A stretch of 64,000 bases of DNA. It comes from Candidatus Poribacteria bacterium. GTDB taxonomy: Bacteria; Poribacteria; WGA-4E; WGA-3G. The number at the start of each line of letters is the position of its first letter. Positions within the stretch are counted from its first letter, which is position 1. The stretch lies in the NCBI GenBank assembly GCA_022820835.1, contig JAJEET010000157.1, forward strand, positions 4,315 through 68,314, in the 5' to 3' direction. The position numbers were made by a program, and so were the translations under genes. A model generated the notes under the pieces. The model saw nothing but the letters and a program-made list of their open reading frames with translations. It made no database searches and was not told the origin of the DNA. Of this stretch, positions 1,090-62,642 are shown one piece after another.

Positions 1090-3015
1090 ATGAGAATCGT
1101 GCTTCTCCTATTACTTTTTTCGGTATCTGTTGTTTTCGGTATAGCGGAAGCTGCAGATGTGAGTTTCGGATTTAATGGTCGTTACAAAACAGGCACGTGG
1201 GCACCATTACGAATCACAGTCCAAGGTTGGGATCGACCAACACCATTTATTGGGGATTTAGTCGTCGATGTCCGAAGTTTTTCTTCAGACGCACCTACTG
1301 AACGGTACACCTCTGAGCTGCATCTCCGCGCCACTAAAGAAAAGCAGAAAAATTTCTATGTTTATTGCCCGAAAAATGCGACACAACTCGTCGTTCAACT
1401 TGTGCCGAGAACATCCTCGAACAACACAGGGTTGGGGAATACGCAGCCGAGTGTGATACAGGAGGTTCCGTTACCGATACCGCTTTCACGTAAAGACTAT
1501 TTCGTATTGGTATTAGCACAAAGCGGTGATAAACTCAAACGATTTATTGACAAAAAACAGTTAGCTAATTCCGATGGCGCGCAGGTATACGTCGAATACC
1601 TTCAGAATTCGACCTTACTGCCACAGGATTGGATAGGCTACAGTGCAGTTGATGTTCTGGTAATCCGTAAGACGGTCTTGACAGAGAGGCGTATTTCTAA
1701 AACACAACAGAAAGCATTATTGGATTGGGTGCAGCGCGGCGGCACGCTCATTCTGTCCGGGGGTAACAACTTTAATGCCCTACAAGACAGTTTCGTGGCA
1801 TCTTTCCTTCCGGTTGAATTGAAAAGTCTAAAGAAAACGGATAGACTCCCGGACACGGTGCATGAACAACTCGGTTTTCAAGCGCGAGATAATAAAGGCA
1901 CTGTATTTGAATACATCCAATTTTCTCCGAAAGCCGGATGTGAAACGTTGATCGGTACAGAAGAACATATCTACGTTGCGAAACGGAAATTTGGAGATGG
2001 ACAGATTATCTGCCTCGCGTTTGATTACAATGCCCCACCATTTTCGGAACAGCAGGTAGGCGAAACATTCTGGCACGGGTTACTCAGTAATTATGGGAAA
2101 TCGGCGCGACACTTTATAGACCGATATGCACTTGTACTCCAACACGAAGAAAAAATTCACGAGGAATTCCTCTCAAATTCTGCCCAAACTGGTGTACATC
2201 AAATACGACTCGTAAAATTGCTGTTTGTTGCCTTACCCATCTACCTACTTAGTTTTGGTGGTTTATTGTTCTATTTTGCGAATTCAAAACAGAAGGCACG
2301 CACCTATTGGATAGGCGGATGTGTATTGGTTCTACTGTCGGTAAGCACAATTACAGTCGCGCGAAATGTATTACCGAACAGCATTACAGCAGATCGGTTG
2401 TCAATTTTATCAGTTTACCCTGAGCGGCAGCGTGCACACTTATCAAGTTATGTCTCCGTTAGGGCAGCAGCGCGGGCTGAAACATCTATCAGCTATACGA
2501 AAGGCAGTTTTATTCGTCATCAGGAAGTTGAAGACTCACGCGTCGAACATCGCCAAACAATACGGACACTCTTTCAGGATTCACAAGTTCAACTACGCGA
2601 GCTGCATGTGGATCCGTGGTATCCGACGACGTATGTGAAGGAAGTATTTTTGGATGTCTCGGAGCTCCCACGTACCCTTGAAAATGCCTGGTATGTTACA
2701 GGTAGAGAGATGACCTACTTAGGAGACGTTGCACTTGATGCCGACCCCGATCTTTCAACTGCATCACTTCAACAGCAAATCACTCCGCAGACACAGATAC
2801 CACCTGATATAGAACTGAACGGCAAGCGGAAATGGTTTGCCCGAATTCTACGGCAGGAATATGTGCTACGTCATCTGGCGGAAGAGGCGGATGCAAGCCT
2901 GCCACCCTATTTGATAGGATGGACTTCACAAGGCTTTACAAATGTGAGCATAGATGGAAACGTGAAGACGGATGATGAAACTTTAGTAATCTTTCGTCCG
3001 ACACCTAGTCTTTAG
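1090..3015 (+). CDS. Secreted/membrane protein of unknown function
   Basis: 641-aa ORF with signal-peptide-like N-terminus MRIVLLLLLFSVSVVFGIAEA. Hydrophobic helices occur mid-protein (LVKLLFVALPIYLLSFGGLLFYF, WIGGCVLVLLSVSTITV). No catalytic motif recognised. Confidence 0.6.
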   Translation: MRIVLLLLLFSVSVVFGIAEAADVSFGFNGRYKTGTWAPLRITVQGWDRPTPFIGDLVVDVRSFSSDAPTERYTSELHLRATKEKQKNFYVYCPKNATQLVVQLVPRTSSNNTGLGNTQPSVIQEVPLPIPLSRKDYFVLVLAQSGDKLKRFIDKKQLANSDGAQVYVEYLQNSTLLPQDWIGYSAVDVLVIRKTVLTERRISKTQQKALLDWVQRGGTLILSGGNNFNALQDSFVASFLPVELKSLKKTDRLPDTVHEQLGFQARDNKGTVFEYIQFSPKAGCETLIGTEEHIYVAKRKFGDGQIICLAFDYNAPPFSEQQVGETFWHGLLSNYGKSARHFIDRYALVLQHEEKIHEEFLSNSAQTGVHQIRLVKLLFVALPIYLLSFGGLLFYFANSKQKARTYWIGGCVLVLLSVSTITVARNVLPNSITADRLSILSVYPERQRAHLSSYVSVRAAARAETSISYTKGSFIRHQEVEDSRVEHRQTIRTLFQDSQVQLRELHVDPWYPTTYVKEVFLDVSELPRTLENAWYVTGREMTYLGDVALDADPDLSTASLQQQITPQTQIPPDIELNGKRKWFARILRQEYVLRHLAEEADASLPPYLIGWTSQGFTNVSIDGNVKTDDETLVIFRPTPSL

Positions 3016-3073: not shown

Positions 3074-4018
3074 ATGGATGTGCTATCGCTCGGTATTTAT
3101 GTCGTCGATGTGCTTGGACGACCGATAGATCAGTTCCCTGAAAAAGGGAAATTAGCACTCTTTGATGAACTCGAAATCCATACCGGGGGTTGTGCCAATA
3201 ACACAGCACTCGCGCTCGCGCGCTTGGGGATATCTGTCGGTGCAATGGGTAAAATTGGTACTGACACTTTCGGCGATCTGATACTGAAAACGCTTTCAGA
3301 TAACGGTGTTAACGTTACTGGTATGCGTCAGGCCTCCGACGATAGCACCTCATTTACATTTGTCGCGGTCGCCTCCGACGGAGAACGGACTTTTTATCAC
3401 TATATCGGTGCGAATGGGGCGCTCTGTGAAGGAGACCTTGATTGGGAACTCATTAAATCCGCCAAAATATTGCATATCGCCGGTGCACTTGTCATGCCAA
3501 GTTTTGACGGTACACCGATGGCAAACGTCCTCCGAGAAGCGAAGGCACACGGCATAACCACCTCACTCGACACAGTGTACGACGCAACCGGAAAATGGAT
3601 GGAGACCTTAGAGCCATGTTTGCGACACGTAGACATCTTTATGCCAAGTATTGTTGAAGCGCGACATCTCACCGGTTTATCTGAGTGCCATGAAATCGTC
3701 CAATTTTTGCGAAATAACTACGACATTGATACCATTGCCATTAAGATGGGTGAAAACGGTAGTTATGTCTCTACACCAGAAACAGAGCTTTCTGTCCCTG
3801 CTTATCCCGTCAACGTTGTCGATGGAACAGGTGCGGGAGATGCGTATGTCGCCGGTTTTCTTGCCGGTACTATTATGGGTTGGGACCTGAATGCCACTGC
3901 AGAATTGGCATCGGCAACGGGTGCAGCATGTGTCACAGCCATGGGGACCACCGCAGGCATCCAGAATCTTGAAGAGACCCTAAAAATAAAGGAGTTAACA
4001 GTAACCAGTAACCAGTAA
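3074..4018 (+). CDS. PfkB-family carbohydrate kinase
   Basis: PfkB signature DGTGAGDAYVAGFLAG near the C-terminus and a ribokinase-like N-terminus (LGIYVVDVLGRPID, TGGCANNTALAL). ATG at 3074 follows AGAGGA. The last codons and the stop lie inside repeat copy E1. Confidence 0.85.
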   Translation: MDVLSLGIYVVDVLGRPIDQFPEKGKLALFDELEIHTGGCANNTALALARLGISVGAMGKIGTDTFGDLILKTLSDNGVNVTGMRQASDDSTSFTFVAVASDGERTFYHYIGANGALCEGDLDWELIKSAKILHIAGALVMPSFDGTPMANVLREAKAHGITTSLDTVYDATGKWMETLEPCLRHVDIFMPSIVEARHLTGLSECHEIVQFLRNNYDIDTIAIKMGENGSYVSTPETELSVPAYPVNVVDGTGAGDAYVAGFLAGTIMGWDLNATAELASATGAACVTAMGTTAGIQNLEETLKIKELTVTSNQ

Positions 4019-4146
4019 CCAGTTAAGAGGCACTCGGATAAACTTTAACCAAGAACTCGCGCCTATTTTTAAATATCGGAAATCGGGTCCTTGGTTAAAT
4101 TCTCTTTTCTGGTAACTCGTAACTGGAAACTGGTAACTGTTAAAAG
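3999..4146. repeat. Composite inverted heptad-repeat element, copy E1
   Basis: Left arm is CAGTAAC x3 then CAGTTAAGAG. An inner 10-bp-stem hairpin pairs TTTAACCAAG (4044-4053) with CTTGGTTAAA (4090-4099). Right arm is CTCTTTT then CTGGTAA CTCGTAA CTGGAAA CTGGTAA CTGTTAA. Confidence 0.85.
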
Positions 4147-5355: not shown

Positions 5356-8175
5356 ATGAAAAATAAAGATGTAGAATTAATAAATCGGATTCTGTCAGGT
5401 GATGATACTGCCTTTGCGAGTTTAGTTAAAAAACACGAAAAGCAGGTGCACGCGCTCGCTTGGCGGAAAATAGGTGATTTCCATATCGCTGAAGAGATTA
5501 CGCAGGACACTTTCCTTAAAGTCTATCAGAAACTTTCTACATTGAAAGACCCGAATCAGTTTTCAGGATGGCTCTATGTAATTGCCACCAACCTATGCCG
5601 CGCCTGGATTCGCAAGAAACGTTTGGAAACTGAACCGCTTGAGGATACAGAGATTGCGTCTATAGACGAAACATATTTCCGATATGTTGCAGAAGAGCGG
5701 ACGAAAGTTACAGTAGAAGCACAACGCGAAGTGGTTAAAAAGCTGCTTGCGAAGCTAAAAGAGAGTGAACGCACGGTGATGACGCTCTATTACTTTGGTG
5801 AAATGACGTGTGAAGAAATCAGCCGATTTTTAGGTGTATCTACCAGCGCGATTAAGCTCCGGCTTCACAGAGCTCGGCAACGTCTAAAAAAGGAGGAACC
5901 CATGATCCGAGAAGCACTTAACAATTTCCAATTGTCCCCTAATTTCACCGATAGTATTATGCGAGAAGTTGCACGTATCAAACCGACTGCCCCATCAGGC
6001 GGCAAACCGTTGGCACCGTGGGTGATAGGCGGGGTATCCAGTGCTTTTGTAATCCTGCTAATGCTTGGCATAGGCAACCAATACTTAGCCCGTTTCCAGC
6101 AGCCCTATAGTTTAGATGCCTCTTCTGAAACGGTGGTTGAACTGATTGATGCGCCCATTGTTCAGGATATTCAAGCGAAACCGGATGTCCGAAATCAGTT
6201 CGGAGCGAATTCTGCTGATCGCGGGAGAGGTAACGGTGCTGGACAGGAGTCGAATCAGGTTTTGTCCGATAACGGAAATTACACACAATGGGATTTACCC
6301 CCAGAAGCCGTCGCGCGTCTCGGTAAAGGCGAGATATCTGGTCATCTCACGTATTCACCGGATGGCACACGCTTGGCGGTAACCAGCTACACCGGAATTT
6401 GGATTTATGACGCACAGACGGGTGAAGAATTAGATTTTCTTAAATCTCACGGTTCAGGTGTCGAGTGGCGTACGAACAAAGAAATTGATCTACTCAGAGA
6501 ACAAGGACATTCAGGGCGTGTGATGAGCGTGAGTTTCAGTCCCGATGGAAAAACACTCGCAAGTAGCGGGAACACGATTGTCCTATGGGATGTTCCGACA
6601 GGAAAACAAAAAACAGTTCTTACAGGGCATGAACATCCACACGATGTGTGGAGCGTGAGGAGCGTGAGTTTCAGTCCCGATGGAAAAACACTCGTTAGCG
6701 GTGTCAACGTTATCGGCACTAAGGACAGTACGGTGCGACTGTGGGACGTTGCTACAGGAAAGCAGGTCTCAGAATTTACTGGACACAAGGGCGGTATCTT
6801 TAGTACAAGATTCAGTCCTGTTAACAATAATACACTCATTAGTGGAAGTGAAGAGGATTTGTGGCTATGGAATGTTGCCCTCGAAACATACGAGAAATTC
6901 AATGTAGATGTCATTGCTTTTAAAGTCGAACCTAATGGCGAAAAAGTTTTTGAGGTACCCTATGTTTTTAGCACAGGGTTTAGTCCCGATGGAAAAACAA
7001 TCGCAAGCGGACACAGAGATGGGACAGTCCGGCTATGGGACGTTGCGACAAGAAAACACAAAGCAACTCTCATAGGACATACACATTTTGTGTGGGCGGT
7101 GGCTTTCAGTCCGGATGGAAAAACAATCGCAAGTGGGAGTTGGGACGAAACAGTGCGCCTATGGGATATTGCTACCGGAAAACACAAAGCAACTCTCACA
7201 GGACATACACATAATGTTAAAGGGCTGGCATATTCTGTTGATGGAAGTACAATCGCTAGCAGCAGTTGGAATGAAGTGAGACTGTGGGACGCAACCACAG
7301 GAAAACACAAGGCAACTTTAAAAGAACATCCGGCTCGTCTTTATTCGGTTGCATATTCCTCAGATGGTAGCACCATCGCTAATGGTAGCGCAGATGGCAC
7401 AGTGCATTTATGGGACGTAACGAGAAAAAAACACAAAATAACACTGAAAGGACACACCGCCCCTGTTAGAAGCATAAGTTTTGATCCGAGTGGTGCCATA
7501 CTTGCAAGTGGTGGTGCTGACAATATGATATATCTGTGGGATATTACCACAGGGACAAAGAAAAAAACGCTCAACGGTCATACGAACAGTGTCACGAGTG
7601 TTGCCTTTGATCCGAATGGGGACATACTCGCGAGCGCGAGCGGAGCGGAGGTATGGTTATGGGATGTTGAAACGGGACAACATAAAACGACCCTCACAGC
7701 ACATAGCGATGTGGTCTATAGTGTCCGGTTTAGTCCTGATGGCAAAACAATCGCCACTGGAGGGGCAGACAAATCGGTACGACTTTGGGATGTTAAAACA
7801 GGACTGGAAAAAATAGCACTCACTGAACATTCAACAGCCGTTGGCTCTATAGACTTTAGTCCTGATGGCAAAACAATCGCAAGCACTAACGGATTCGAGT
7901 GGTGGCTTTGGGATATTGAAACAAGACAACTAAAAACAAAAGGGTACCATGGTTCTATCCGAAGTGTGAGATTTAGTCCTGATGGCAAAATACTCGCCAC
8001 CGGAGGGGCAGACCATGTCTTGCGACTGTGGGAGCCAACCACAGGACAATCAAAAGCCATATACCGCGGACATACCGGCAGTGTTGAAAGCGTGAGTTTT
8101 AGTCCGGATGGTAAAACGCTTGCAACTGGAAGTGAAGATGGAACGGTCCTGCTTTGGAGCCTCAAAAAATTTTAA
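5356..8175 (+). CDS. ECF sigma-70 factor fused via one TM helix to a double WD40 beta-propeller
   Basis: aa 1-190 carry sigma region 2 (HALAWRKIGDFHIAEEITQDTFLKVY) and the region 4 HTH (CEEISRFLGVSTSAIKLRLHRARQRL). The TM helix is PWVIGGVSSAFVILLMLGIG (about nt 6007-6070). About 14 blades follow with the recurring FSPDGKT...LWD pattern. SD GAGGT lies 6 nt upstream. Confidence 0.85.
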   Translation: MKNKDVELINRILSGDDTAFASLVKKHEKQVHALAWRKIGDFHIAEEITQDTFLKVYQKLSTLKDPNQFSGWLYVIATNLCRAWIRKKRLETEPLEDTEIASIDETYFRYVAEERTKVTVEAQREVVKKLLAKLKESERTVMTLYYFGEMTCEEISRFLGVSTSAIKLRLHRARQRLKKEEPMIREALNNFQLSPNFTDSIMREVARIKPTAPSGGKPLAPWVIGGVSSAFVILLMLGIGNQYLARFQQPYSLDASSETVVELIDAPIVQDIQAKPDVRNQFGANSADRGRGNGAGQESNQVLSDNGNYTQWDLPPEAVARLGKGEISGHLTYSPDGTRLAVTSYTGIWIYDAQTGEELDFLKSHGSGVEWRTNKEIDLLREQGHSGRVMSVSFSPDGKTLASSGNTIVLWDVPTGKQKTVLTGHEHPHDVWSVRSVSFSPDGKTLVSGVNVIGTKDSTVRLWDVATGKQVSEFTGHKGGIFSTRFSPVNNNTLISGSEEDLWLWNVALETYEKFNVDVIAFKVEPNGEKVFEVPYVFSTGFSPDGKTIASGHRDGTVRLWDVATRKHKATLIGHTHFVWAVAFSPDGKTIASGSWDETVRLWDIATGKHKATLTGHTHNVKGLAYSVDGSTIASSSWNEVRLWDATTGKHKATLKEHPARLYSVAYSSDGSTIANGSADGTVHLWDVTRKKHKITLKGHTAPVRSISFDPSGAILASGGADNMIYLWDITTGTKKKTLNGHTNSVTSVAFDPNGDILASASGAEVWLWDVETGQHKTTLTAHSDVVYSVRFSPDGKTIATGGADKSVRLWDVKTGLEKIALTEHSTAVGSIDFSPDGKTIASTNGFEWWLWDIETRQLKTKGYHGSIRSVRFSPDGKILATGGADHVLRLWEPTTGQSKAIYRGHTGSVESVSFSPDGKTLATGSEDGTVLLWSLKKF

Positions 8176-8483: not shown

Positions 8484-11060
8484 ATGAAAAGGACGCAATT
8501 TCAGAAAGCTTTGGAAAGACCTATCAAAATTATTTCATACCCTACGCGCTTTCTTGCTGAAACTTTGATAGAAAGATTAATTTTACTGCTCTTCGTAGTC
8601 TCAATCTTTTTTTTACCGGATGCTTTTGCTCAAAGTTATACACAGTGGGATTTGCCTGAAGGGGCTAAGGCACGTCTTGGTAAGGGATACGCAGGCGATC
8701 TAAAGTTTTCCGATGATGGCAATCGTCTGATGGTTGAGAACACTGTCGGGGTTTGGGTCTACGATGCACATAGCGGTGTGGAACTGGATTTAATCACAGG
8801 AAATTTATCAGACAGTCTCGCTTTGAGTCCTGATAACAGTACCGTTGCCGGTTGGGGACCAGACGACAAGGTATACCTGTGGAACATAGCCGATAGCGAA
8901 AACAAAGTAACACTTGAAGGAAATACCTCAAGAGTCCGCAGAATGACTTTCAGCCCAGATGGTCGCACAGTTGCTGGTGGGACTTTGGATGACGAGGTAA
9001 TTCTATGGGACGTTGCCTCTGGTGTGCGCATAGCAACGCTCATTGGACACACAGGCTCAATAACTTCGCTCGCTTTTAGTCCAGACAGTACAACGCTCGC
9101 GAGCGGTAGTTGGGACGAGACGGTACGTATGTGGGATGCTGCCACGGGCACGCACAAAATTACGCTCACCAAACACACTGATGGTGTCTTTAATGTTGCG
9201 TTCAGTCCAGATGGTCACACATTGGCGAGCGCAAGCTCCAATGAAGATAAGATACACTTATGGGATGCAGTCAATGGAGCATACAAAGCAACCATTGCTA
9301 CGGATGCCTCTTGTATCGCTTTCAGTTCTGACAGTAGCACTCTGGCAAGTGGGAACTGGAGAGGCGAATTGTACTTGTGGGATGTTGTCAGTGGAACGTA
9401 TAAATCGGAGTTCATTGGGCATTCTCTACGGGGTATTAATTCGATTACATTCAGTCCAGATGGCAAAACACTCGCAAGTGCAGGTTACGACAAACTATAT
9501 CTATGGGATGTTGAAACGGGCGCGCGCAAATTATCAATTACCGGTCATACAGATGGCGTCAACTCAATTGCATTCAGCCCGGATGGCAATACGCTTGCAA
9601 GCGGGAGTCGGGAACAGATTCGTCTGTGGGATGTCAGCACAAGGACACACGCAGCGACGCTGTTTGTAGAAGATTGGACAACTAACGCCAGTTTGGCTTT
9701 CAGTCCAGATGGCAATACGCTCGCGAGTGAGGGTAGTTCCGGGATCCATCTGTGGAACGTTAGCAGCCGCACACACCGCGCAATCGTCAGAGCAGATGGG
9801 CATAAAATAAGTGGTTATGTCAGATACAGATCAATTGCTTTCAGCCCGGATGGTAGATTTCTTGCCCGTAACTCAAGTAATGGCGCGCTGCTATGGTACG
9901 CCGGACGGACCTATAAAACGGCACTCACTGGCCATACAGATGATGGCACTTCAATCGCCTTCAGTTACGATAGTCGAACGCTTGCAAGTGGTAGTGTGGA
10001 CACTATGGTGCGTCTGTGGGATGTTGATACCAATGCCCACAAAGCAACCTTCGCGGGACATACAGACAGTGTTGTGAGTGTTGCGTTTAGTCCGGATGGT
10101 AACCTCCTTGCAAGCGGCAGCGATGACAACACCATAATTCTATGGGATGTTGAGACCGGGAAACCGAAAACCACCTTCGTTGCACATACGGATGGTGTCA
10201 ATGACGTAGTGTTCAGTCCGGATGGCAATACGCTTGCGAGTTGTGGCTATCGGTATGATGCCACTGTCAAACTTTGGGATGTTGAGACGGGTGCGCTTAA
10301 AAGGACCTTCCTTGGACACACGGAAGGTATTACTGAAATTGCGTTCAGTCCGGATGGTCAAACCCTCGCGAGTAGTGGTTGGGATGACCTCATATTTTTA
10401 TGGGATTTGGCACCAGAAGTATCCGTTGGGACAGAAACTGCACAACCTGCTGAGGATGCAAATCGTGATGGTGTGGTAGACCTCCAAGATTTGGTTTTCG
10501 TTGCCTCACAATTTGGACAGCCTGGCGCAGAAAACGCTGCGGATATCAACGAAGACGGTATTGTTGACATAGCGGATATCTTGCTGGTCGCTGGTGCACT
10601 TGAGACCGGCAATGGTGCCCCATCTGCGTATTCGCGGTCAATAGAATTGCTTGCCGCTGCGGAGGTGGAACGGTGGTTAAAACAAGCACAGCACGTTAAT
10701 GACAAAGCACCTATTTTCCAAAAAGGTATCGCTGTTCTTGAAAGCCTCTTGGCTGCGCTGACTCCGAAAGAGACGGTGCTTCTGCCGAACTACCCGAACC
10801 CGTTTAATCCTGAGACGTGGATCCCGTATCAGTTGGCAGCGGATGCGGATGTGACAATCCGCATTTATGCTGCGAGTGGGGAATTGGTAAGGACGTTGGC
10901 GTTGGGATATCAATCTGCAGGCACCTATCAAAGTCGTAGCCAAGCGGCGTATTGGGATGGTAAAAATGAACTTGGAGAACCTGTGGCAAGCGGACTCTAT
11001 TTCTACACGCTGTCTGCCGAGAGGTTCACGGCGACGCGCCGGATGGTCATACGGAAATAA
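8484..11060 (+). CDS. Secreted WD40 double propeller with dockerin-like repeats and T9SS/FlgD-Ig-like C-terminal domain
   Basis: SD GGAGGGG and a signal-like hydrophobic stretch LILLLFVVSIFFLPDAFAQ. About 14 FSPDG/LWD blades. Paired EF-hand dockerin repeats DANRDGVVDLQDL and DINEDGIVDIADIL lie at about nt 10454-10600. The C-terminus has LLPNYPNPFNPETWIPYQL...GLYFYTL. Confidence 0.85.
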   Translation: MKRTQFQKALERPIKIISYPTRFLAETLIERLILLLFVVSIFFLPDAFAQSYTQWDLPEGAKARLGKGYAGDLKFSDDGNRLMVENTVGVWVYDAHSGVELDLITGNLSDSLALSPDNSTVAGWGPDDKVYLWNIADSENKVTLEGNTSRVRRMTFSPDGRTVAGGTLDDEVILWDVASGVRIATLIGHTGSITSLAFSPDSTTLASGSWDETVRMWDAATGTHKITLTKHTDGVFNVAFSPDGHTLASASSNEDKIHLWDAVNGAYKATIATDASCIAFSSDSSTLASGNWRGELYLWDVVSGTYKSEFIGHSLRGINSITFSPDGKTLASAGYDKLYLWDVETGARKLSITGHTDGVNSIAFSPDGNTLASGSREQIRLWDVSTRTHAATLFVEDWTTNASLAFSPDGNTLASEGSSGIHLWNVSSRTHRAIVRADGHKISGYVRYRSIAFSPDGRFLARNSSNGALLWYAGRTYKTALTGHTDDGTSIAFSYDSRTLASGSVDTMVRLWDVDTNAHKATFAGHTDSVVSVAFSPDGNLLASGSDDNTIILWDVETGKPKTTFVAHTDGVNDVVFSPDGNTLASCGYRYDATVKLWDVETGALKRTFLGHTEGITEIAFSPDGQTLASSGWDDLIFLWDLAPEVSVGTETAQPAEDANRDGVVDLQDLVFVASQFGQPGAENAADINEDGIVDIADILLVAGALETGNGAPSAYSRSIELLAAAEVERWLKQAQHVNDKAPIFQKGIAVLESLLAALTPKETVLLPNYPNPFNPETWIPYQLAADADVTIRIYAASGELVRTLALGYQSAGTYQSRSQAAYWDGKNELGEPVASGLYFYTLSAERFTATRRMVIRK

Positions 11061-11065
11061 AAAAA

Positions 11066-11201
11066 TAGTTTTGACCAACAACTCGTGCCTTAGTAAAAGT
11101 ATCTGTAGACGAATTGTTGATCAAAGTTATCGGTTGTCAGTTAAGAGACGGATTTGGATCCACCACAGTCCTCTTTAACGGATAACTAATGACCAATAAC
11201 C
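11066..11201. repeat. Composite inverted heptad-repeat element, copy E2 (degenerate)
   Basis: Hairpin module pairs TTTGACCAACAACTCG (11070-11085) with CGAATTGTTGATCAAA (11110-11125). It continues with TTATCGG TTGTCAG TTAAGAG, a spacer containing TGGATCCA, and CTCTTTA ACGGATA ACTAATG ACCAATA. Confidence 0.75.
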
Positions 11202-11222: not shown

Positions 11223-13754
11223 ATGAAAAGGATGCAATTTTCGATTTTAATGCTATTTCTCATTTCAATGTTCTTTCCTCTGGATACGTTTGCTCAGGAT
11301 TATACACAATGGAGTTTACCTGAGGGTGTCAAAAAGAGACTAGGGAAGGGTAGCCTATACGGTACCAGTAATATAGTGTTTTCACCGGATAGCAGCCTGC
11401 TTGCCGTTGCGAGTTCTATCGGTGTCTGGATTTACGATGGATATACCGGTAAAGAGCTGAATCTACTCACGAGGCATACGGGAGGCATTTCAAGTGTCGC
11501 GTTCAGTCCAGATGGAAAAACGCTTGTAAGTAGCAGCTCAGCAGAGTTTTACCTGTGGGATGTTGCCACAGGCGAACATAAAGCCACTTTTACCGGACAT
11601 ACAGCTAACATTACGAGTGTCGCATTCAGTCCGGATGGTAAAACGCTGGCAACTGGTGGAGATGAGAAGGAAGGGCTGATCAAGCTTTGGAATGTTGCTA
11701 CCGGTACGCTCAAATCAACACTCACAGGACATACGGACGGCATCTCAAGCGTTGTATTCAGTCCGGATGGGGAAATACTCGCAAGTAGTGGAAAGTGGTC
11801 AGACGAAACAGTGAAGCTTTGGGATGTTGCCACTGGCACCCTCAAAACGACACTCATAGGACATACGAGCGGCATTATGGATATCGCGTTTAGCCCTGAC
11901 GGGAACACACTTGCCAGTGGTGGTGATTGGTTGGACTACACAGTGCGGCTCTGGGATGTTAACAGTGGCGCGTTGAAAGCAACGCTTATCGGACACATGG
12001 GCGAGATTAAGAGCGTAACGTTCAGCCCGGATGGCAAAACCCTTGCGAGTGGTAGTGATGACGGAACGGTGTGTTTATGGGATGTTAACAGTGCCACTTA
12101 CAAAACGACGCTCTTAGCACACAGCCAAAGTGTCGTGAGTGTAGCGTTCAGCCCGGATGGCAAAACATTCGTAAGCGGGAGTTGGGACGGCACATTGATA
12201 TTATGGGATGCAGTGAGTCTCAAGCGCAGCACGACAATTACTGGACATACGGCGGATTTCTTAAGCATAGCGTTCAGTCCAGATGGTCGAACGATTGTGA
12301 GTGGGAGTTGGGATCGAACCGTACGACTGTGGGATACCACTACTGGGACCAACAGTGCCACTCTCACTGGACATATAGGTCCCATCGAATCCGTAGCGTT
12401 CAGTCCGGATGGTCGAACGGTTGCCAGTTGCAGTGGTATAGATGTCATCAATGGTTGGTTCGGAGATGATTACACGATAAGGTTATGGGACGCTGTTACT
12501 GGCAGACATAAAATGACACTTATTGGACATAAGGAGCGTGTTTATAATATCGCGTTTAGCCCGGATGGTCGTCTGCTTGCCAGTTGCGACGGGCGGCGGG
12601 ATACAAAGGTGTATTTGTGGGATACAGCCACCGGGAATCCGATAGCAACACTGAGCGGTCATAGGGACTTTGTATTCCGTGTCGTGTTTAGCTCAGATGG
12701 GAACACACTCGCCAGTGGTGGTGATTCGGAAATATACTTGTGGGACATTTCCAGCAGACAGCAGAAAATGCGTTTGACTGGGTATACGGGACGTATCTGG
12801 GCTCTTGCATTCAGTCCAGATGGGAAGACGCTCGCAAGTGGCGGAGCAGGTTCGGAGGTGCATTTGTGGGATGTTGCCTCAGGCGCGCATAAGATTGCCC
12901 TCACAGGACATACAGGCAATATCAATAGTGTGGCGTTCAGTCCGGATGGTAAAACCCTCGCAAGTAGTGGAAATTGGAAAGACAGAACAGTGCGCTTGTG
13001 GGATCCTATCAGTGGGGATCACAAATCGACGTTCATAGGATATGCCAGTGGCAATCAGAGCCTTACTTTCAGTCCGGATGGGAAGACACTCGCTGTTGCT
13101 GATATGGGTGGGACAATACTCCTATGGAAGCTTGAAACTATAGAGGAACTGCCGTTGTTGGAAGCGGATGTGAATGGTGATGGTGTCGAAGATGTTCACG
13201 ATTTGGTGCTTGTTGCGGCGAACTTCGGACAGACGGGTCCAAACGCTGCAGATGTCAATGGCGATGGCGTTGTTGACATCGCGGATCTTATCAAAGTCGC
13301 TGCTGCTTTGGATAACGCGGCAGCTGCGCCCCCCGCTGCGATGCTTAAGATAAAAAATATGCAACAGTGGCTTAGGCAAGCGCAGCAATTAGATGCGACA
13401 GATGCAACGTTACAGAGAGGTATTCACTTCCTTGAACAGCTGCTGGGGACGTTAGCACCGACAGAGACGGCATTGTTGCCGAACTATCCGAACCCATTCA
13501 ATCCAGAGACGTGGATACCGTATCAATTGGCAGAGCCTGCGAATGTAACGCTGCGTATCCATTCCGCCGATGGGACATGGGTTCGTACGCTGGCATTAGG
13601 ACATCAACCTGCTGGTATTTATCAACAACGGAACCGTGCGGCGTATTGGGATGGCAAAAATGAACTCGGTGAGCGTGTTGCGAGTGGTGTCTATTTCTAT
13701 ACGTTGAGAGCAGGGAATTTCGCGGCAACGCGAAAGATGTTAATACGGAAATAG
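11223..13754 (+). CDS. Secreted WD40 double propeller with dockerin-like repeats and T9SS/FlgD-Ig-like C-terminal domain (paralogue of 8484..11060)
   Basis: SD GGGAGG and signal peptide MKRMQFSILMLFLISMFFPLDTFAQ. About 14 blades. Dockerin repeats DVNGDGVEDVHDL and DVNGDGVVDIADL. Same C-terminal LLPNYPNPFNPETWIPYQL...GVYFYTL domain. Confidence 0.85.
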   Translation: MKRMQFSILMLFLISMFFPLDTFAQDYTQWSLPEGVKKRLGKGSLYGTSNIVFSPDSSLLAVASSIGVWIYDGYTGKELNLLTRHTGGISSVAFSPDGKTLVSSSSAEFYLWDVATGEHKATFTGHTANITSVAFSPDGKTLATGGDEKEGLIKLWNVATGTLKSTLTGHTDGISSVVFSPDGEILASSGKWSDETVKLWDVATGTLKTTLIGHTSGIMDIAFSPDGNTLASGGDWLDYTVRLWDVNSGALKATLIGHMGEIKSVTFSPDGKTLASGSDDGTVCLWDVNSATYKTTLLAHSQSVVSVAFSPDGKTFVSGSWDGTLILWDAVSLKRSTTITGHTADFLSIAFSPDGRTIVSGSWDRTVRLWDTTTGTNSATLTGHIGPIESVAFSPDGRTVASCSGIDVINGWFGDDYTIRLWDAVTGRHKMTLIGHKERVYNIAFSPDGRLLASCDGRRDTKVYLWDTATGNPIATLSGHRDFVFRVVFSSDGNTLASGGDSEIYLWDISSRQQKMRLTGYTGRIWALAFSPDGKTLASGGAGSEVHLWDVASGAHKIALTGHTGNINSVAFSPDGKTLASSGNWKDRTVRLWDPISGDHKSTFIGYASGNQSLTFSPDGKTLAVADMGGTILLWKLETIEELPLLEADVNGDGVEDVHDLVLVAANFGQTGPNAADVNGDGVVDIADLIKVAAALDNAAAAPPAAMLKIKNMQQWLRQAQQLDATDATLQRGIHFLEQLLGTLAPTETALLPNYPNPFNPETWIPYQLAEPANVTLRIHSADGTWVRTLALGHQPAGIYQQRNRAAYWDGKNELGERVASGVYFYTLRAGNFAATRKMLIRK

Positions 13755-13881
13755 TTATCAGTTTTCAGTACGATTTTTTCTACGAAAAAATCTTTCAGTT
13801 TTCAGAAAGAGACATCTGGAACTATCACAACCCTCTTTACTGATAACTGATAACTGAAAGGCGTACTCGCCGTACTGATAA

Positions 13882-13884
<3 letters not shown>
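13752..13884. repeat. Composite inverted heptad-repeat element, copy E3
   Basis: Fills the whole gap between two convergent stop codons. The termini TAGTTATCAG ... CTGATAACTA are inverted repeats. It contains two CAGTAC-hairpin-TTTCAG modules and the core AAAGAG-N21-CTCTTT. Confidence 0.85.
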
Positions 13885-15154
<1,270 letters not shown>

Positions 15155-18303: not shown

Positions 18304-18497
18304 GCGAGTACGCAGTTAACAGTTGTCAGTACGGCGAGTACGCCTTTCAGTTTTGACCAACAACTCGTGCCTTAGTAAAAGTATCGGACTCGAGTTGTTG
18401 GTCAAAGTTAAGAGATGTTAGAATTATCACAACCCTCTTTTAACTGATAACTGATAACTGATAACTGAAAGGAATCGTACCCGATTCCGTACTGATG
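18304..18497. repeat. Composite inverted heptad-repeat element, copy E4 (most complete)
   Basis: Order of parts: CAGTAC-GGCGAGTACGCC-TTTCAG; a 16-bp perfect hairpin (18352-18367 with 18391-18406); GTTAAGAG; a spacer ending ATCACAACCCTCTTTT; AACTGAT x3; CTGAAA-GGAATCGTACCCGATTCC-GTACTG. Confidence 0.9.
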
Positions 18498-18558
18498 ACA
18501 CAATGGACAAAGGCACGAATTGATGGTCAACACGGAAGATCAGTGCTATGGTCCATAG

Positions 18559-20004
18559 TTAAAAGATTCCTACAATCGGTTCGCCTTTGACTAACTCGCG
18601 GGGTTGATCTAAATGATTGTAGACGATCGTATGCGGATCAATACCAAGCGTATGGTAGACCGTAGCGAGGATGTCGCGCGGATGCACCGGATTTTCAAGT
18701 GGTGTTGAACCTGTTTCATCAGATTTCCCGTAAACCTGTCCACCTCGGACCCCTGCGCCTGCGATCAATCCTGTGTAGCAATAGGGCCAGTGATCGCGTC
18801 CATCTGGTGCGTTGCTGTTTCCGGAGGTGCTTATCCCCATCCGTGGGGAACGCCCGAATTCACCAATCGCCAAGACAAGCGTTTCCTCTAAGAGTCCGCG
18901 TTGATCCAAGTCTTCGAGCAGTGAAGAGACGGCACTATCTAACTTCGGACAGTGAAGGTTTTTCAGCGGACCGAAGTTGGTTGCGTGCGTATCCCATGCG
19001 GTCGTGTTCGGATTACCGTTTGCGACAGAGGGCCAGTTCACCTGAACGAAACGTGTTCCTGCTTCGACTAACCGTCGAGCAAGGAGTGTGCTCTGTCCGA
19101 AAGTATGTCTACCGTAGCGATCGCGAACTTCATCGGGTTCTTGCGAAAGATCGAAAGCGTTACGAGCGCGTTGCGATAGGATGAGGTTGTACGCCTTCTC
19201 ATAATACTCGTTCAAGGCATAGGAATCCGCTACCTTGTCAATTTCGGGCATCCCGGCGTTAATCGTTTCGAGGAGATCTTTCCGGCGTTTCAGACGCACG
19301 GGCGGCACCTCTGGACGTAAACTTAAATCGTCGAGGTTAATCTCCTGATTCGGGTCTTGGAAGAGGAAGTACGGGTCGTAGGCTCTACCCAGGAAGCCGG
19401 CGTTTCCACCTTTGCCGATGATGTTACTCTCTTGCATCGGACGTGGGAGTTGAACAGCAGCGAGCATCGGTTCATCTGGTGGTCTGTAGTTGGCGATATG
19501 TGCTGCGGCGTTCGGGTGGTCAGCGGGTGAAGGCGGATCAAGTTGCCCTGACGGTGCGACTTTGTCTGGTGTTTCACCGGTAACCATCTGATACATCGCA
19601 GCGGTATGATTGAAAAGCCCTGCCGGTGTGTAACTTACGGAGCGAATCAAGCAGGCTTTGTCCATCTGCTGCGCCAAAAGCGGCATGGTTTCGGACAATT
19701 GGATGCCTTGTACATTGGTCGGAATCGGTTTAAACTCACCTCGAATGTTCGAGGGAGCTCCCGGTTTCGGGTCCCAGATGTCGAGATGGCTTGGGCCGCC
19801 TTGTAGGAATAGGAGTATGACCGAGTTGGCTTTCCCCCACCCGTTTAGCGATTTTGCGGGGTCAACTGCCGTATTCGCGTTCGCTTGGAGTGACAATACC
19901 TGTGGCAGACTAATGCCGAGCATCGCCGCACCACCGACACGTAGAAATTCACGACGTGAGAACCCGTCACATAAGCGTCCGGGTAATTGTGGTAACGATA
20001 ACAT
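18559..20004 (-). CDS. DUF1501 family protein (sulfatase-like fold) with Tat-type signal
   Basis: Twin-arginine signal SRREFLRVGGAAMLG. Family motifs LFLQGGPSHLDIWDPKP and GEFGRSPR...GRDHWP. Confidence 0.9.
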   Translation of the reverse strand: MLSLPQLPGRLCDGFSRREFLRVGGAAMLGISLPQVLSLQANANTAVDPAKSLNGWGKANSVILLFLQGGPSHLDIWDPKPGAPSNIRGEFKPIPTNVQGIQLSETMPLLAQQMDKACLIRSVSYTPAGLFNHTAAMYQMVTGETPDKVAPSGQLDPPSPADHPNAAAHIANYRPPDEPMLAAVQLPRPMQESNIIGKGGNAGFLGRAYDPYFLFQDPNQEINLDDLSLRPEVPPVRLKRRKDLLETINAGMPEIDKVADSYALNEYYEKAYNLILSQRARNAFDLSQEPDEVRDRYGRHTFGQSTLLARRLVEAGTRFVQVNWPSVANGNPNTTAWDTHATNFGPLKNLHCPKLDSAVSSLLEDLDQRGLLEETLVLAIGEFGRSPRMGISTSGNSNAPDGRDHWPYCYTGLIAGAGVRGGQVYGKSDETGSTPLENPVHPRDILATVYHTLGIDPHTIVYNHLDQPRELVKGEPIVGIF

Positions 20005-22685: not shown

Positions 22686-23585
22686 CTACGTAAGATCCCA
22701 GAGTAGGACGGAGTTGTCTTCACTGCCACTTGCGAGTACATTCCCATCAGATGCATATAGGACATTCCTGACACTCCTTGTGTGTCCAGCGAGTGCACCT
22801 TTAGGTTCGCCTGTTTCTGCGTCCCACAGCCGCACTGTCTCGTCGCGCCCGCCGCTCGCGATCGTGTTGCCATCTGGGGAATATGCGACGCTCCAGACGT
22901 AGCCGACATGTCCTGTAAGCGTTGTCATTAAGCTGTTTTCAAACGTATTCCACAACCGAATTGTCCCGTCAATACTGCCACTTGCAAGTGTGCTTCCATC
23001 TGGGGCATACGCGACGGAGTTGACGATATCTTTATGTCCTGTGAGCGTGGTTTTGTGCCTACCAGTCGCAGCATCCCAGAGGACGAGGGTGTCATCTCCA
23101 CTTCCGGCAGTGAGCGTGCTGCCATCTGGGGAATACACAAGACCTCTAACGGAACTTGTATGTCCTTCAAGGACGTTTTTTGCGTCTCCGGTGTTCGCGT
23201 CCCACAGACGTACGGTGCCATCGGGACCTCCACTTGCAACTGTGGTCCCGTCTGGTGAATAGACGACGCTTCTCACAGCATCCGTATGTCCTTTGAGCGT
23301 GGCTGTTGGTGCGCCGCCGGCAGCATCCCACAGAATGATTGTGTTATCTACCCCGCCACTTGCGACAGCCGTGCCATCCGGTGAAAAGGCGACACACCTG
23401 ACATACTCCTTATGCTCCACGAGGAGATTAAGTCCTAAACCACTATCTACATCGTATATCCAAACGCCGATGTCGCAGGCAACTGCAAGTTGCGCTCCAT
23501 CAGGTGAGAAGGCGATATCTCCAGTTAGATTTCCTTGATCAAGTCGTGCTTTGACCCCTTTAGGTAAATTCAATTGTGCATCCAT
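22686..23585 (-). CDS. Stand-alone seven-bladed WD40 protein (no signal peptide, no C-terminal domains)
   Basis: Seven (F/Y)SPDG...LWD blades. It starts directly at the LPKGVKARLDQG motif that follows the signal/TM segment in the three large paralogues. Confidence 0.85.
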   Translation of the reverse strand: MDAQLNLPKGVKARLDQGNLTGDIAFSPDGAQLAVACDIGVWIYDVDSGLGLNLLVEHKEYVRCVAFSPDGTAVASGGVDNTIILWDAAGGAPTATLKGHTDAVRSVVYSPDGTTVASGGPDGTVRLWDANTGDAKNVLEGHTSSVRGLVYSPDGSTLTAGSGDDTLVLWDAATGRHKTTLTGHKDIVNSVAYAPDGSTLASGSIDGTIRLWNTFENSLMTTLTGHVGYVWSVAYSPDGNTIASGGRDETVRLWDAETGEPKGALAGHTRSVRNVLYASDGNVLASGSEDNSVLLWDLT

Positions 23586-29492: not shown

Positions 29493-29599
29493 GCAGATTT
29501 TTGCGTACAAAAAAAATTAAAGTGCCTTTATGACAAAAATCACAACAGCAGATTTTTGCGTACAAAAAAAATTAAAGTGCCTCTATGACAAAAATCACA
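29493..29599. repeat. Tandem direct repeat, 2 copies, period 55 bp
   Basis: GCAGATTTTTGCGTACAAAAAAAATTAAAGTGCCT[T/C]TATGACAAAAATCACA at 29493-29544 and again at 29548-29599, with one mismatch. Confidence 0.9.
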
Positions 29600-47481: not shown

Positions 47482-47506
47482 CAGGCGGGGTTCCAAACCC
47501 CGCCTG
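47482..47506. terminator. GC-rich hairpin between convergent genes (possible bidirectional terminator)
   Basis: CAGGCGGGG-TTCCAAA-CCCCGCCTG forms a 9-bp perfect stem. There is no clear T-run on either side. Confidence 0.45.
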
Positions 47507-47552
47507 CCGATGTGTTCGCGTAAGTCCGATGCCGATGTGTTCGCGTAAGTCC
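47506..47552. repeat. 22-bp direct repeat, 2 copies, period 25
   Basis: GCCGATGTGTTCGCGTAAGTCC at 47506-47527 and again at 47531-47552. Confidence 0.9.
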
Positions 47553-48851: not shown

Positions 48852-50255
48852 ATGGAACTTTACGAAGCCGTCAGTCCACTGGATTTCAGATACTATGGCG
48901 GCGATCCAGATTTTATGAAACGGTTGCTGCCTTATGTCTCTGAAGCGGGATACGTTACGTCCCAGGCGAAGGTAGAGGCGGCGTTGGTACGGACTTTGGC
49001 AAACTACGGTATCTGCTCATCAGCGATCGCCGATGAAGTGGAAGCGGCAGTGGATTTGGTAACAGCGGAAGAAGTATACGAGGAGCAGTCGCGGATTCGA
49101 CACAACATCCGCTCACTTGTTAATGTCATCCGTCGAAAGATTAGTCCAGAAGCGCGTCCGTATGTGCATCTGTTCGCCACTTCAGCGGACATTTTGGATA
49201 CTGCGACCGCGTTGCGGTTCAAGGCGTTGACTGAAAATGTTATTATTCCTGATCTAATTGCGCTGGTGCAGCAACTTATCACGTTGGCACGTGAAAATGC
49301 TGAGACAGTACAAATCGGTAGGACACACGGACAACACGCCGAACCGACAACATTTGGTTATTCCTTAGCACTTTATATCAGCCGTCTCGGCACTCGGATT
49401 GAGAAGATTCATGAGGCGGGTCAAAATCTGCGAGGTCAATTTTCAGGTGCGGTTGGTGCGTTTAATGGACTGACACTGATTCATGAACATCCCGAACAGA
49501 TTGAAGCAGATTTTCTTGCACTGCTGGGTTTACGACCATCCGATACGCATACCTCAACACAGTGTGTTGAACCGGAATTTATCTCGGATTTGGCATATCA
49601 GGTTACGGCAGCGTATACTGTGCTTGCGAACTTTGCCGATGATATGCGGCACCTCTACCGTACCGAAATCGCCGAAGTGGGTCGGAAATACAACCCGCAG
49701 CTGGTGGGTTCATCAACGATGCCGCACAAAGTGAACCCGGAGGCATACGAGAACATCAAAAGTCTGTGGAAGGCGTTTGTGCCACGTATGCAGACCGTCT
49801 TTATGGATAGTATTTTAGAGCATCAACGCGACCTGACGAATTCGGCATCCAGTCGCTTTTTGACGGAATTATTCACGGCGTTTGATTATGCGATTTATCG
49901 ACTTCGACGCGCGTTGGACGAGATGGATGTCAAGGCAGACAACATGCGACGCAATCTTGGACTCAGCGCGGAGGATACGATTGCGGAACCGATCTACCTG
50001 TTAATGGCATACTACGGATTTCCGGATGCGTACGATCACACCCGAAAATTAATAGGGCAAGTACATCAGACGGGAAAGAGTTTAACGACGCTATTGTGGG
50101 AAGATAAGACGTTCCAACCTTTCTTGGAAAAGTTGACGGAACCGCAGCGTGCTGCACTACGAGATCCAACAAATTATATCGGTGCTTCGGTTCGACGGAC
50201 GCACGCGACATGCGACGAATGGGAGAAACGGATTTTTAATTTACCTTGTGGTTAA
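48852..50255 (+). CDS. purB: Adenylosuccinate lyase-like fumarate-lyase family enzyme
   Basis: N-terminus VSPLDFRYYG and family signature GSSTMPHKVNP. ATG 48852 has GGAGA 9 nt upstream. ATG 48837 is an alternative. The ORF-track start at 48717 lies inside repeat-like leader sequence. Confidence 0.8.
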   Translation: MELYEAVSPLDFRYYGGDPDFMKRLLPYVSEAGYVTSQAKVEAALVRTLANYGICSSAIADEVEAAVDLVTAEEVYEEQSRIRHNIRSLVNVIRRKISPEARPYVHLFATSADILDTATALRFKALTENVIIPDLIALVQQLITLARENAETVQIGRTHGQHAEPTTFGYSLALYISRLGTRIEKIHEAGQNLRGQFSGAVGAFNGLTLIHEHPEQIEADFLALLGLRPSDTHTSTQCVEPEFISDLAYQVTAAYTVLANFADDMRHLYRTEIAEVGRKYNPQLVGSSTMPHKVNPEAYENIKSLWKAFVPRMQTVFMDSILEHQRDLTNSASSRFLTELFTAFDYAIYRLRRALDEMDVKADNMRRNLGLSAEDTIAEPIYLLMAYYGFPDAYDHTRKLIGQVHQTGKSLTTLLWEDKTFQPFLEKLTEPQRAALRDPTNYIGASVRRTHATCDEWEKRIFNLPCG

Positions 50256-50452
50256 ACTTCGTGCGTTTAGATGTTTGTGTGCGTTCCATAAATCCGCACT
50301 CCACTTCGTTACGTGCTACAGTTGCTGAAACTTTTTAGAGTGGACTTTTAATTTACCTTGCGGTTAAACTTCGTGCGTTTAGATGTTTGTGCGTTCCATA
50401 AATCCGCACTCCACTTCGTTACGTGCTACAGTTGCTGAAACTTTTTAGAGTG
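50230..50452. repeat. Tandem duplication of about 112 bp that includes the last 26 nt of purB
   Basis: Copy 1 is 50230-50341 and copy 2 is 50342-50451. They differ by 2 substitutions and one 2-nt indel. Confidence 0.95.
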
Positions 50453-54881: not shown

Positions 54882-54960
54882 GGAATAGCAGTCAGCCATC
54901 AGCCATCGGAAACTGTCAGTAAAAGAAGTTCGTTTTGATGGATCCAATAGCTGATGGTTC
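54882..54960. repeat. Composite inverted heptad-repeat element, copy E6 (short)
   Basis: GGAATAG CAGTCAG CCATCAG CCATCGG AAACTGTCAGTAAAAG ... AGCTGATGGTTC. Confidence 0.7.
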
Positions 54961-57512: not shown

Positions 57513-57636
<124 letters not shown>

Positions 57637-62497: not shown

Positions 62498-62642
62498 CAG
62501 CAAAACGGCTTTCGGAAACCTTCGGCTGACGGCTTTCAGGAAAGAAAAGAGGCGTTTTATAACGCTTGCGTTTTTGCTGGCAGCTGGCGACTGATGACTA
62601 ACTGCTAATGACTGATGACCGATGGCTGATGGTTGATGGTTG
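62465..62642. repeat. Composite inverted heptad-repeat element, copy E9
   Basis: Left arm heptads contain GGCTTTCGGAAACC units. Centre is AAAGAAAAGAG-GCGTTTTATAACGC. Right arm is CTGGCAG CTGGCGA CTGATGA CTAACTG CTAATGA CTGATGA CCGATGG CTGATGG TTGATGG. Confidence 0.85.

Follow-up and report, generated by a model that had tools for sequence, protein, structure and literature searches.

A probably mobile family of miniature palindromic repeats in one clade of Candidatus Poribacteria

A hairpin with 16-bp arms that recurs in a 64,000-nt stretch of Candidatus Poribacteria DNA (GenBank assembly GCA_022820835.1, contig JAJEET010000157.1; this whole stretch is called the window) probably belongs to a family of miniature palindromic repeats, not described before, of one Candidatus Poribacteria clade, which is mobile or cassette-like and in which matched arms are needed for, or made by, propagation. 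Considering that insertions are polymorphic between related genomes, that orientation is random, that some copies lie in coding sequences and that orthologous copies differ by uncompensated changes, the constraint on the hairpin most likely acts on the propagation of the element as DNA. An earlier note on the same DNA had observed compensatory base changes between copies and had read them as selection on the structure, as RNA or cruciform. The observation stands, and selection on structure is the right reading at the level of the family, with propagation as its likely beneficiary rather than a per-locus RNA or cruciform. A literature search found no paper on repeats in Poribacteria.

Anatomy of the hairpin modules in the window

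The hairpin modules of the window, their scores with the covariance model (CM) of the family and a relic are the following:

4044 to 4099, plus strand: hairpin module E1, 56 nt, CM score 60.3 bits; 5′ arm at 4044-4059 (TTTAACCAAGAACTCG), 24-nt class B loop at 4060-4083 (CGCCTATTTTTAAATATCGGAAAT), 3′ arm at 4084-4099 (CGGGTCCTTGGTTAAA)
11070 to 11125, plus strand: hairpin module E2, CM score 75.9 bits; 5′ arm at 11070-11085, class A loop at 11086-11109 (..TATCTGTAGA), 3′ arm at 11110-11125 (CGAATTGTTGATCAAA)
18352 to 18406, plus strand: hairpin module E4, 55 nt, CM score 76.6 bits; 5′ arm at 18352-18367 (TTTGACCAACAACTCG), 23-nt loop at 18368-18390, 3′ arm at 18391-18406 (CGAGTTGTTGGTCAAA)
18496 to 18531, minus strand: relic of an older, diverged module, consisting of a 5′ arm (GTTGACCATCAATTCG) and 20 nt of loop

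The earlier note had placed a module of about 57 nt at E1, E2 and E4; sequence reading and a mismatch search bore out its coordinates, and the actual length is 55-56 nt. Reading of 18352-18406 confirmed the perfect 16-bp stem that it had described in E4, and both of the compensated changes that it had listed for E1 relative to E4 are present (G4 to A with C to T, and C10 to G with G to C). Its claim that E2 and E4 share the 5′ arm plus 34 nt of loop was too generous: the two 5′ arms are identical, and the shared prefix is 34 nt in total, made up of the 16-nt arm and 18 nt of loop. The E1 stem can be extended to 16 positions with an A.C mismatch at position 11 and a U.G pair at position 14. In E2, two G-to-A changes in the 3′ arm leave two uncompensated C.A mismatches on the plus strand, which become G.U pairs when read on the minus strand.

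When up to 3 mismatches were allowed, the arm matched six places in the window against 1.08 expected, a count that was reached in none of 100 shuffles; the relic arm at 18516-18531 (minus strand) was one of the 3-mismatch matches. Folded as RNA, the plus strands of the three modules gave −26.2, −17.4 and −13.8 kcal/mol (z = −7.0, −3.8 and −3.3 against shuffles), and all three folded far beyond shuffles on both strands (z from −3.3 to −7.0). A scan of the whole window with Rfam 15 at gathering scores returned 0 matches, and a permissive Rfam scan of E4 returned only sub-threshold noise, in the form of hits to the model of a plant miRNA hairpin that reached 19.8 bits where the gathering score is 90.

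The modules lie in mosaics of nested repeats

The modules are embedded in composite elements, none of which is assigned to a strand:

3999 to 4143: composite element E1, made up of (CAGTAAC)n, TTAAGAG, the hairpin, CTCTTTT and (CTGGTAA)n
11061 to 11200: composite element E2, made up of the hairpin, heptamers, GTTAAGAG-N23-CTCTTTAAC and heptamers
13756 to 13886: composite element E3, made up of heptamers, a small hairpin (GATTTTTTC-TAC-GAAAAAATC), an AAGAG..CTCTTT frame and a GGCGTACTCGCC small hairpin
18318 to 18495: composite element E4, made up of heptamers, a small hairpin (GGCGAGTACGCC), the large hairpin, GTTAAGAG-N20-CTCTTTTAAC, (TAACTGA)4 and a small terminator-like hairpin

E3 contained no large hairpin module and gave no CM match. 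The building blocks of these mosaics are tandem heptamers (CAGTTAT-like), a small hairpin (CAGTAC-stem-TTTCAG) and a GTTAAGAG...CTCTTTTAAC frame with variable content; the large hairpin lies within or outside this frame and in both orientations relative to the heptamers, and two modules are adjacent in L018. The positions of the smaller blocks in the window are:

3999-4023, 4109-4143, 13839-13857, 15019-15149, 18441-18468, 54892-54907, 57518-57549, 61501-61645 and 62472-62642: heptamer arrays
4024-4108, 11139-11176, 13809-13838 and 18407-18445, and many loci elsewhere: frame module GTTAAGAG ... CTCTTTTAAC, with 8-10 bp inverted ends
13771-13798, 13859-13875, 18330-18345 and 18471-18488: small hairpins in a CAGTAC...TTTCAGT frame

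Tandem heptamers fill many intergenic regions, with units that vary by site (CAGTAAC, CTGGTAA, ACTGATA, TAACTGA, AGTTTCC, TCAGCCA, GCTGATG and similar), and the arrays on opposite sides of an element are inverted; at the kinase/ABC site of L201-L227 the intergenic regions are short and lack heptamer arrays. What the GTTAAGAG ... CTCTTTTAAC frame encloses is highly variable and measures 20 to more than 60 nt, and at orthologous sites the frame is kept and its content swapped, as at the E1 site, where it holds the hairpin in the window and a GGAAGG/CCTTCC-rich insert in L148 and L165. The small hairpins have compensated stem variants of their own (GATTTTTTC/GAAAAAATC, GGTTTTTC/GAAAAACC, GGCG/CGCC and GGAATCG/CGATTCC), and the one at 18471-18488 (minus strand), just downstream of the gene at 18559-20004 (minus strand), was flagged as terminator-like. 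In a subfamily with the flank ..TTCCGT next to the module, the module always lies in the loop of an outer palindrome (L031, L032, L027, L102, L151 at 16523 and L165 at 15482), and the stem of this outer palindrome also covaries (CCGTTTT/AAAACGG, CGATTT/AAATCG, CACTGGTCT/AGACCAGTG).

Two further kinds of repeat were noted in the window. Three large tandem genes (5356-8175, 8484-11060 and 11223-13754) are full of 126-nt WD40-like repeats (families D1-D16, with 22686-23585 listed alongside); a C-terminal segment of 300 nt is conserved between the second and the third (10666-10965 and 13360-13659, 69% identical), and the synteny of these genes is variable, one or more of them being missing in some relatives. 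Intergenic tandem duplications, unrelated to the hairpin family, lie at 50230-50452 (110 nt × 2, 96% matches), 29493-29599 (55 nt × 1.9, 98%) and 47505-47552 (25 nt × 1.9, 100%).

The family across Poribacteria genomes

About 160 two-armed copies were extracted from public genomes, in about 30 Poribacteria assemblies. A degenerate 20-mer that spans the 5′ arm and runs into the start of the loop matched more than 110 stretches in a species-representative genome collection, and a loop-only pattern, which left the arms free, matched 81 stretches, nearly all of them in Candidatus Poribacteria MAGs or chromosomes. The few scan matches outside Poribacteria lacked the arms and were chance matches; no two-armed copy was found in another phylum. 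The host genomes are those of sponge-symbiont Poribacteria. We also ran the covariance model (R1) on 1.57 Mb chosen without regard to the module, namely 80 loci around the orthologue of an ABC-ATPase gene together with the window. It returned about 20 distinct copies, all of them where the ATPase is at least 84% identical to that of the window, and found zero modules in 27 more distant Poribacteria loci (L201-L227).

The consensus of the family consists of two 16-bp inverted arms (TTTGACCAASAACTCG) around an asymmetric, conserved loop of 23-27 nt, which begins with YGCCTT, ends with TAT..GG/GTAG and falls into three main classes. GTAG is present only in the class A loop (..TATCTGTAGA) and is missing from classes B (..CGGAAAT) and C/D (..CGGAGT). 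The arms, which are not palindromic in themselves, vary at few positions, and both the arm sequence and the asymmetric loop are highly conserved within this AT-rich family. The unit is bounded on both sides by the 16-bp arms, and what is gained or lost measures about 52-56 bp. In a set of 78-nt variants the inner 3′ arm is swapped for a 26-nt segment (TGTTTTTGCTTGGGTGTTTCTTCTAA), which may be another tiny repeat nested in the hairpin; a similar motif, GTTTTTGCTTGGGTGTTTC, recurs elsewhere. The variants were found at the following places:

L011, 4354-4431: 78-nt variant
L057, 2271-2348: 78-nt variant
L071, 3081-3158: 78-nt variant
L080, 1422-1499: 78-nt variant
L167 and L191, intergenic regions: further 78-nt variants

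Gain and loss at orthologous sites

These elements make the intergenic regions of Poribacteria hypervariable. The kinase/ABC intergenic region, which holds E1 in the window, varies in length among 80 genomes, the shortest being about 10 bp and the longest more than 250 bp; the hairpin was seen in the window only and was absent from the orthologous region of all 80 related genomes. At this site the window shares its heptamers and its TTAAGAG...CTCTTTTCTGG frame with the closest relatives, L148 and L165, in which the insert is a different one. The site of E2 provided the cleanest comparison of a filled and an empty site (alignment A5), with the sister genome L150 (OZ244821.1) showing the same composite element, flanks 91% identical to those of the window and a clean gap instead of the hairpin:

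11073 to 11124, plus strand: E2 indel, 52 nt present in the window and missing in L150

The 52-nt unit is flanked by AGTTTT and AGTYATCGG, with the insertion following TTTT, and comparison with the empty L150 site revealed no duplicated target bases in this one clean pair. The ends of the element are defined by the same single pair; when L151 and L154 were compared with empty orthologues, and L169 with L155, the junctions differed, and the flanks of other copies vary (..NGT, ..AAC or ..GC). Elements of the IS200/IS605 type leave no target duplication, insert 3′ of a fixed tetra- or pentanucleotide and show a replication-linked strand bias. On complete chromosomes, whose 3-9 copies each give such a comparison little power, the orientation of the modules followed no clear two-block replichore pattern.

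The E4 module was absent from the orthologous sites of L165, L151, L149 and L175, where the CM identified an older, degenerate, full-length module instead. In the window, the composite element E4 replaced about 140 nt, including half of the older module, of which the relic at 18496-18531 is what remains. Since the event at this site was a replacement and not a simple insertion, part of the turnover could stem from recombination or cassette exchange. The site orthologous to E3 held a module in L169 only, and the relatives were without it.

Copies inside protein-coding genes

Although the copies are mostly intergenic and lie in heptamer mosaics, some are in frame within genes. Crude ORF calls placed 32 modules in ORFs, and a copy was accepted as coding only when Pfam domains were present on both sides or when an orthologue alignment supported it. 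The proteins that host in-frame copies are a RecD2-like helicase, a DUF4350-like protein, a PSCyt2/PSD1 protein and a TPR/FG-GAP protein. In L151 and L154 the module lies within the orthologue of the window ORF at 1090-3015 and adds 17 aa (NARTSLNIGNRVLGQSE) that are missing from the window protein and from about 25 other orthologues, the proteins otherwise aligning end to end. In L056 and L083 it separates the HHH_RecD2 domain of the helicase from its AAA_19 domain and is translated as TNNSSTDTFAKARVVGQ, directly before the conserved AIYLAPFYYAE. The copy in L082 is situated between PSCyt2 and PSD1, and that in L136 between TPR and FG-GAP repeats.

Arms covary between paralogues but not between orthologues

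The earlier note had proposed that all copies be aligned and tested for covariation, and the outcome of this check was strong covariation of the arms across the family. In an alignment of 72 non-redundant copies (A1), 96% of the stem cells were paired and 9 of the 16 pairs had changed on both sides; the observed covariation values were attained by 0-1 of 500 shuffled controls, and slid controls paired at 23-48%. A second sample of 61 unique true copies, anchored on the loop and therefore unbiased as to the arms, had at least 14 of 16 positions paired in every copy. Position 4 of the stem was G-C in 53 copies and A-T in 8, with zero G.T or A.C intermediates; position 9 was A-T in 52 and T-A in 7; position 10 was C-G in 33 and G-C in 25; and single double changes were found at positions 5, 8, 12 and 16. 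The paired states of positions 4, 9 and 10 occurred with the three loop classes in nearly all combinations, and all three positions were paired in 126 of 137 unique copies. The interpretation in the earlier note was thus supported in part: complementarity of the arms is kept family-wide far beyond chance, whereas the claim that structure rather than sequence is under selection found no support, the sequences of arms and loop being highly conserved themselves.

By contrast, when copies were grouped as orthologues by the homology of their flanks (22 groups, 56 copies), pairwise comparison revealed 47 single-sided stem differences and 0 compensated ones. Position 4 was mismatched in both L151 and L154, as A.C in one and G.G in the other. 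Matched states in many combinations among paralogues, combined with 47 to 0 among orthologues, indicate that complementarity belongs to the proliferating lineages, those from which new copies arise, and is not restored at resident loci. Between orthologues, the 3′ arm diverged by 4.4% per site against 10% in the flanks, in a sample biased to intact copies, and the stems of one old group of orthologues differed mostly by transitions that preserve G.T pairs; these two observations could point to some weak constraint at resident loci.

Stem position 6 showed a recurrent uncompensated change of its own, GGTCAAA to GATCAAA in the 3′ arm (C.A), which was present in 8-10 unique copies including E2 and gives rise to a GATC site; it may mark a subfamily or reflect a mutational hotspot.

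Alternatives to selection on propagation

If each copy acted as a functional RNA at its locus, whether as a stabiliser of mRNA 3′ ends, an RNase processing site or a terminator-like signal, as proposed for REPs, selection would bear on the RNA structure. Consistent with this, most copies lie between tandem genes, at a median of about 23 nt past the stop codon when co-oriented, and the folds are very stable in both orientations. The modules also sit within long assembled metatranscriptome contigs, which do not reveal transcript ends, and are therefore transcribed, repeat depth being inflated by paralogues in RNA and DNA runs alike. The slow divergence of the 3′ arm relative to the flanks points the same way, and so does a slight, non-significant sense-strand excess of G.U over A.C (26 to 17, p = 0.22; when the modules were read in their own forward direction, the counts were 23 G.U and 32 A.C, p = 0.28). 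The placement in tandem, convergent and divergent intergenic regions (97/7/6) is roughly as expected from the baseline (1488/198/118), however, and orientation is random despite the conserved asymmetric loop, with 49 of the copies between tandem genes co-directed and 48 opposed. Intrinsic terminators have a GC-rich stem, a loop of 3-8 nt and a 3′ U-tract. The module has TTT at its 5′ side, AAA at its 3′ side and no U-tract, its loop is 23-24 nt in the window copies and 23-27 nt in the family, and a terminator scan did not flag the large hairpins of E1, E2 and E4; it was accordingly rejected as an intrinsic terminator. Moreover, it matches no Rfam family, several copies are translated within coding sequences, the window copies are all missing from sister genomes that retain the same genes, and orthologous copies differ by uncompensated changes only. 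A functional RNA at each locus is thus unlikely, and the role at transcript ends that the earlier note implied does not agree with the balanced orientation, the absence of a significant G.U excess, the unlike-terminator anatomy, the translated copies and the 47-to-0 count. When transcribed, the hairpin will form as RNA too, whichever its orientation, probably as a side effect.

Matched changes might also arise without any selection, if intrastrand template switching or quasipalindrome correction copied one arm onto the other. Such copying would account for the missing G.T and A.C intermediates between the 53 G-C and 8 A-T copies at position 4, for the changes at positions 9 and 10, which are transversions (A-T to T-A, C-G to G-C) with no wobble route, and for the shuffling of compensated states over all loop classes. 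We nevertheless regard it as improbable, given that mismatches persist in resident copies (C.A at position 6 in 8-10 copies, two in E2, and position 4 in L151 and L154) and that no arm-to-arm correction was seen in the 22 orthologous groups. These persistent mismatches indicate that correction, if any, is tied to copying and is not continuous, in which case it merges with propagation of the element as DNA. Very improbable, in turn, is a DNA regulatory site, in the form either of a dimer operator on the two arms or of a portable sigma-70 promoter (TTGACC, 17 nt, TAnnnT) directed opposite to the window's plus strand. Such a promoter can be read by eye in every loop class, the arm giving TTGACC and a TA-rich hexamer following 16-17 nt downstream (TACTTT, TATTTA, or TATAAT in L032 and L027); E4 is directed at a small ORF about 100 nt downstream, and Correia and other MITEs are known to carry promoters (PMC10969869). 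A promoter scan did not call the modules of E1, E2 and E4, though, and E1 and E2 are wrongly directed; promoters in about half of the copies would be directed antisense at the 3′ end of the gene next to them; 24 bp between the arms and copies in coding regions do not fit an operator; and divergent promoter regions are not enriched (6 of 110 copies against 118 of 1804 in the baseline).

A proposed model of propagation by matched arms

The reading that we prefer remains that of a miniature repeat constrained by its propagation as DNA. Its copies are gained and lost at orthologous sites, lie in either orientation, are nested in other repeats, insert in frame into coding sequences and decay in place. 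No transposase or RAYT gene was found beside or between copies, the nine ORFs between close module pairs being housekeeping genes. We propose that the making of a new copy either depends on pairing of the arms or restores it. In its most likely form, this step would involve a folded single-stranded DNA hairpin recognised by a transposase or recombinase, as in the REP/REPIN-RAYT and IS200/IS605 systems (PMC3116915, PMC3733652), and the conserved asymmetric loop would serve as a sequence-specific recognition feature. If copying requires folded arms, proliferation is restricted to subfamilies whose arms match; compensation at positions 4, 9 and 10 would then distinguish proliferating lineages from one another and would not reflect repair at the locus. 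Resident copies, for their part, gather uncompensated substitutions. In a variant of this model, one arm would be copied from the other during propagation, which would explain the missing intermediates at position 4.

A bolder interpretation, which we consider doubtful, is that the family represents a distinct class of single-hairpin mobile elements of about 52 bp, with no target duplication or GTAG-type tag, in which a putative enzyme of the host or the element reads the folded single-stranded hairpin together with its asymmetric loop and regenerates copies with matched arms; with the heptamer arrays, such elements would drive the turnover of intergenic regions and occasionally add peptides to proteins. 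If this were true, compensation would be built into the copying step.

Compensatory changes in a repeated hairpin need not, then, imply a functional RNA, and selection on propagation can be told apart from selection at the locus by setting paralogues, with their many compensated differences, against orthologues, with 0 of 47. The elements break metagenome assemblies and put peptides into conserved proteins such as the RecD2-like helicase, which makes them relevant to MAG annotation and strain typing. With them, an uncultivated phylum of sponge symbionts joins the short list of lineages with seemingly mobile hairpin repeats, and the CM and the roughly 160 copies are available as a resource.

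Comparison with known systems

The cyanobacterial small dispersed repeats (SDRs), reportedly described by Elhai et al. in 2008, are said to be 21-27 nt long, to occur in Nostocaceae and to be nested in heptamer STRR arrays. The Poribacteria family is alike in being tiny and seemingly mobile, in encoding no protein and in being nested in heptamer arrays and in other such repeats; it differs in being a 52-56 bp hairpin of Poribacteria as opposed to a 21-27 nt repeat of Nostocaceae. The Poribacteria heptamer arrays themselves resemble cyanobacterial STRR arrays.

The likeness to REPs and REPINs, which RAYTs, Y1 transposases of the IS200/IS605 type, mobilise, lies in short interspersed palindromes that are mostly extragenic and sometimes intragenic, occur in both orientations and form clusters or mosaics (PMC3116915, PMC3733652). 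REPs occur inside genes, often those for replication and repair (PMC3733652). REPIN hairpins show frequent compensatory changes, which have been read as evidence of single-stranded DNA hairpins (PMC3116915), and such changes preserve the hairpin across copies of the Poribacteria family too; its one clean insertion without target-site duplication may be offered as a further likeness. On the other hand, the Poribacteria stem is 16 bp and its loop 23-27 nt, as compared to 5-13 bp and 2-20 nt in REPs. Beyond one end of their stem, REPs carry GTAG or CGTC as a conserved tetranucleotide (PMC3733652), and neither is conserved outside the Poribacteria stem. A REPIN consists of two inverted REPs, whereas the Poribacteria arms are not palindromes themselves; the family is AT-rich and not GC-rich, and no RAYT was found among the nine ORFs between close pairs.

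The Rickettsia palindromic elements (RPEs) are selfish palindromes that enter unrelated protein-coding genes in frame and become translated (PMC10969869), and the Poribacteria element likewise has copies that are in frame and translated. RPEs are about 100-150 bp long, belong to Rickettsia and have no sequence similarity to it, whereas the Poribacteria unit is 52-56 bp and mostly intergenic. With MITEs (Correia, ERIC, BOX) and BIMEs it has in common a non-coding nature, terminal inverted repeats, nested intergenic clusters and a modular composition (BOX, BIME), and such elements may incidentally influence transcripts (PMC10969869); its length is roughly half that of the smallest typical MITEs, it shows no target-site duplication at the E2/L150 site and it is not known to share its ends with a parent IS. 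Two other candidates were rejected: integron attC sites, which have AAC..GTT where the module has GTT..AAC outside, and CIRCE-like operators, whose conserved cores do not fit. The element therefore works like the miniature repeats of the REPIN, RPE and SDR types, while departing from each of them in part of what defines its members.
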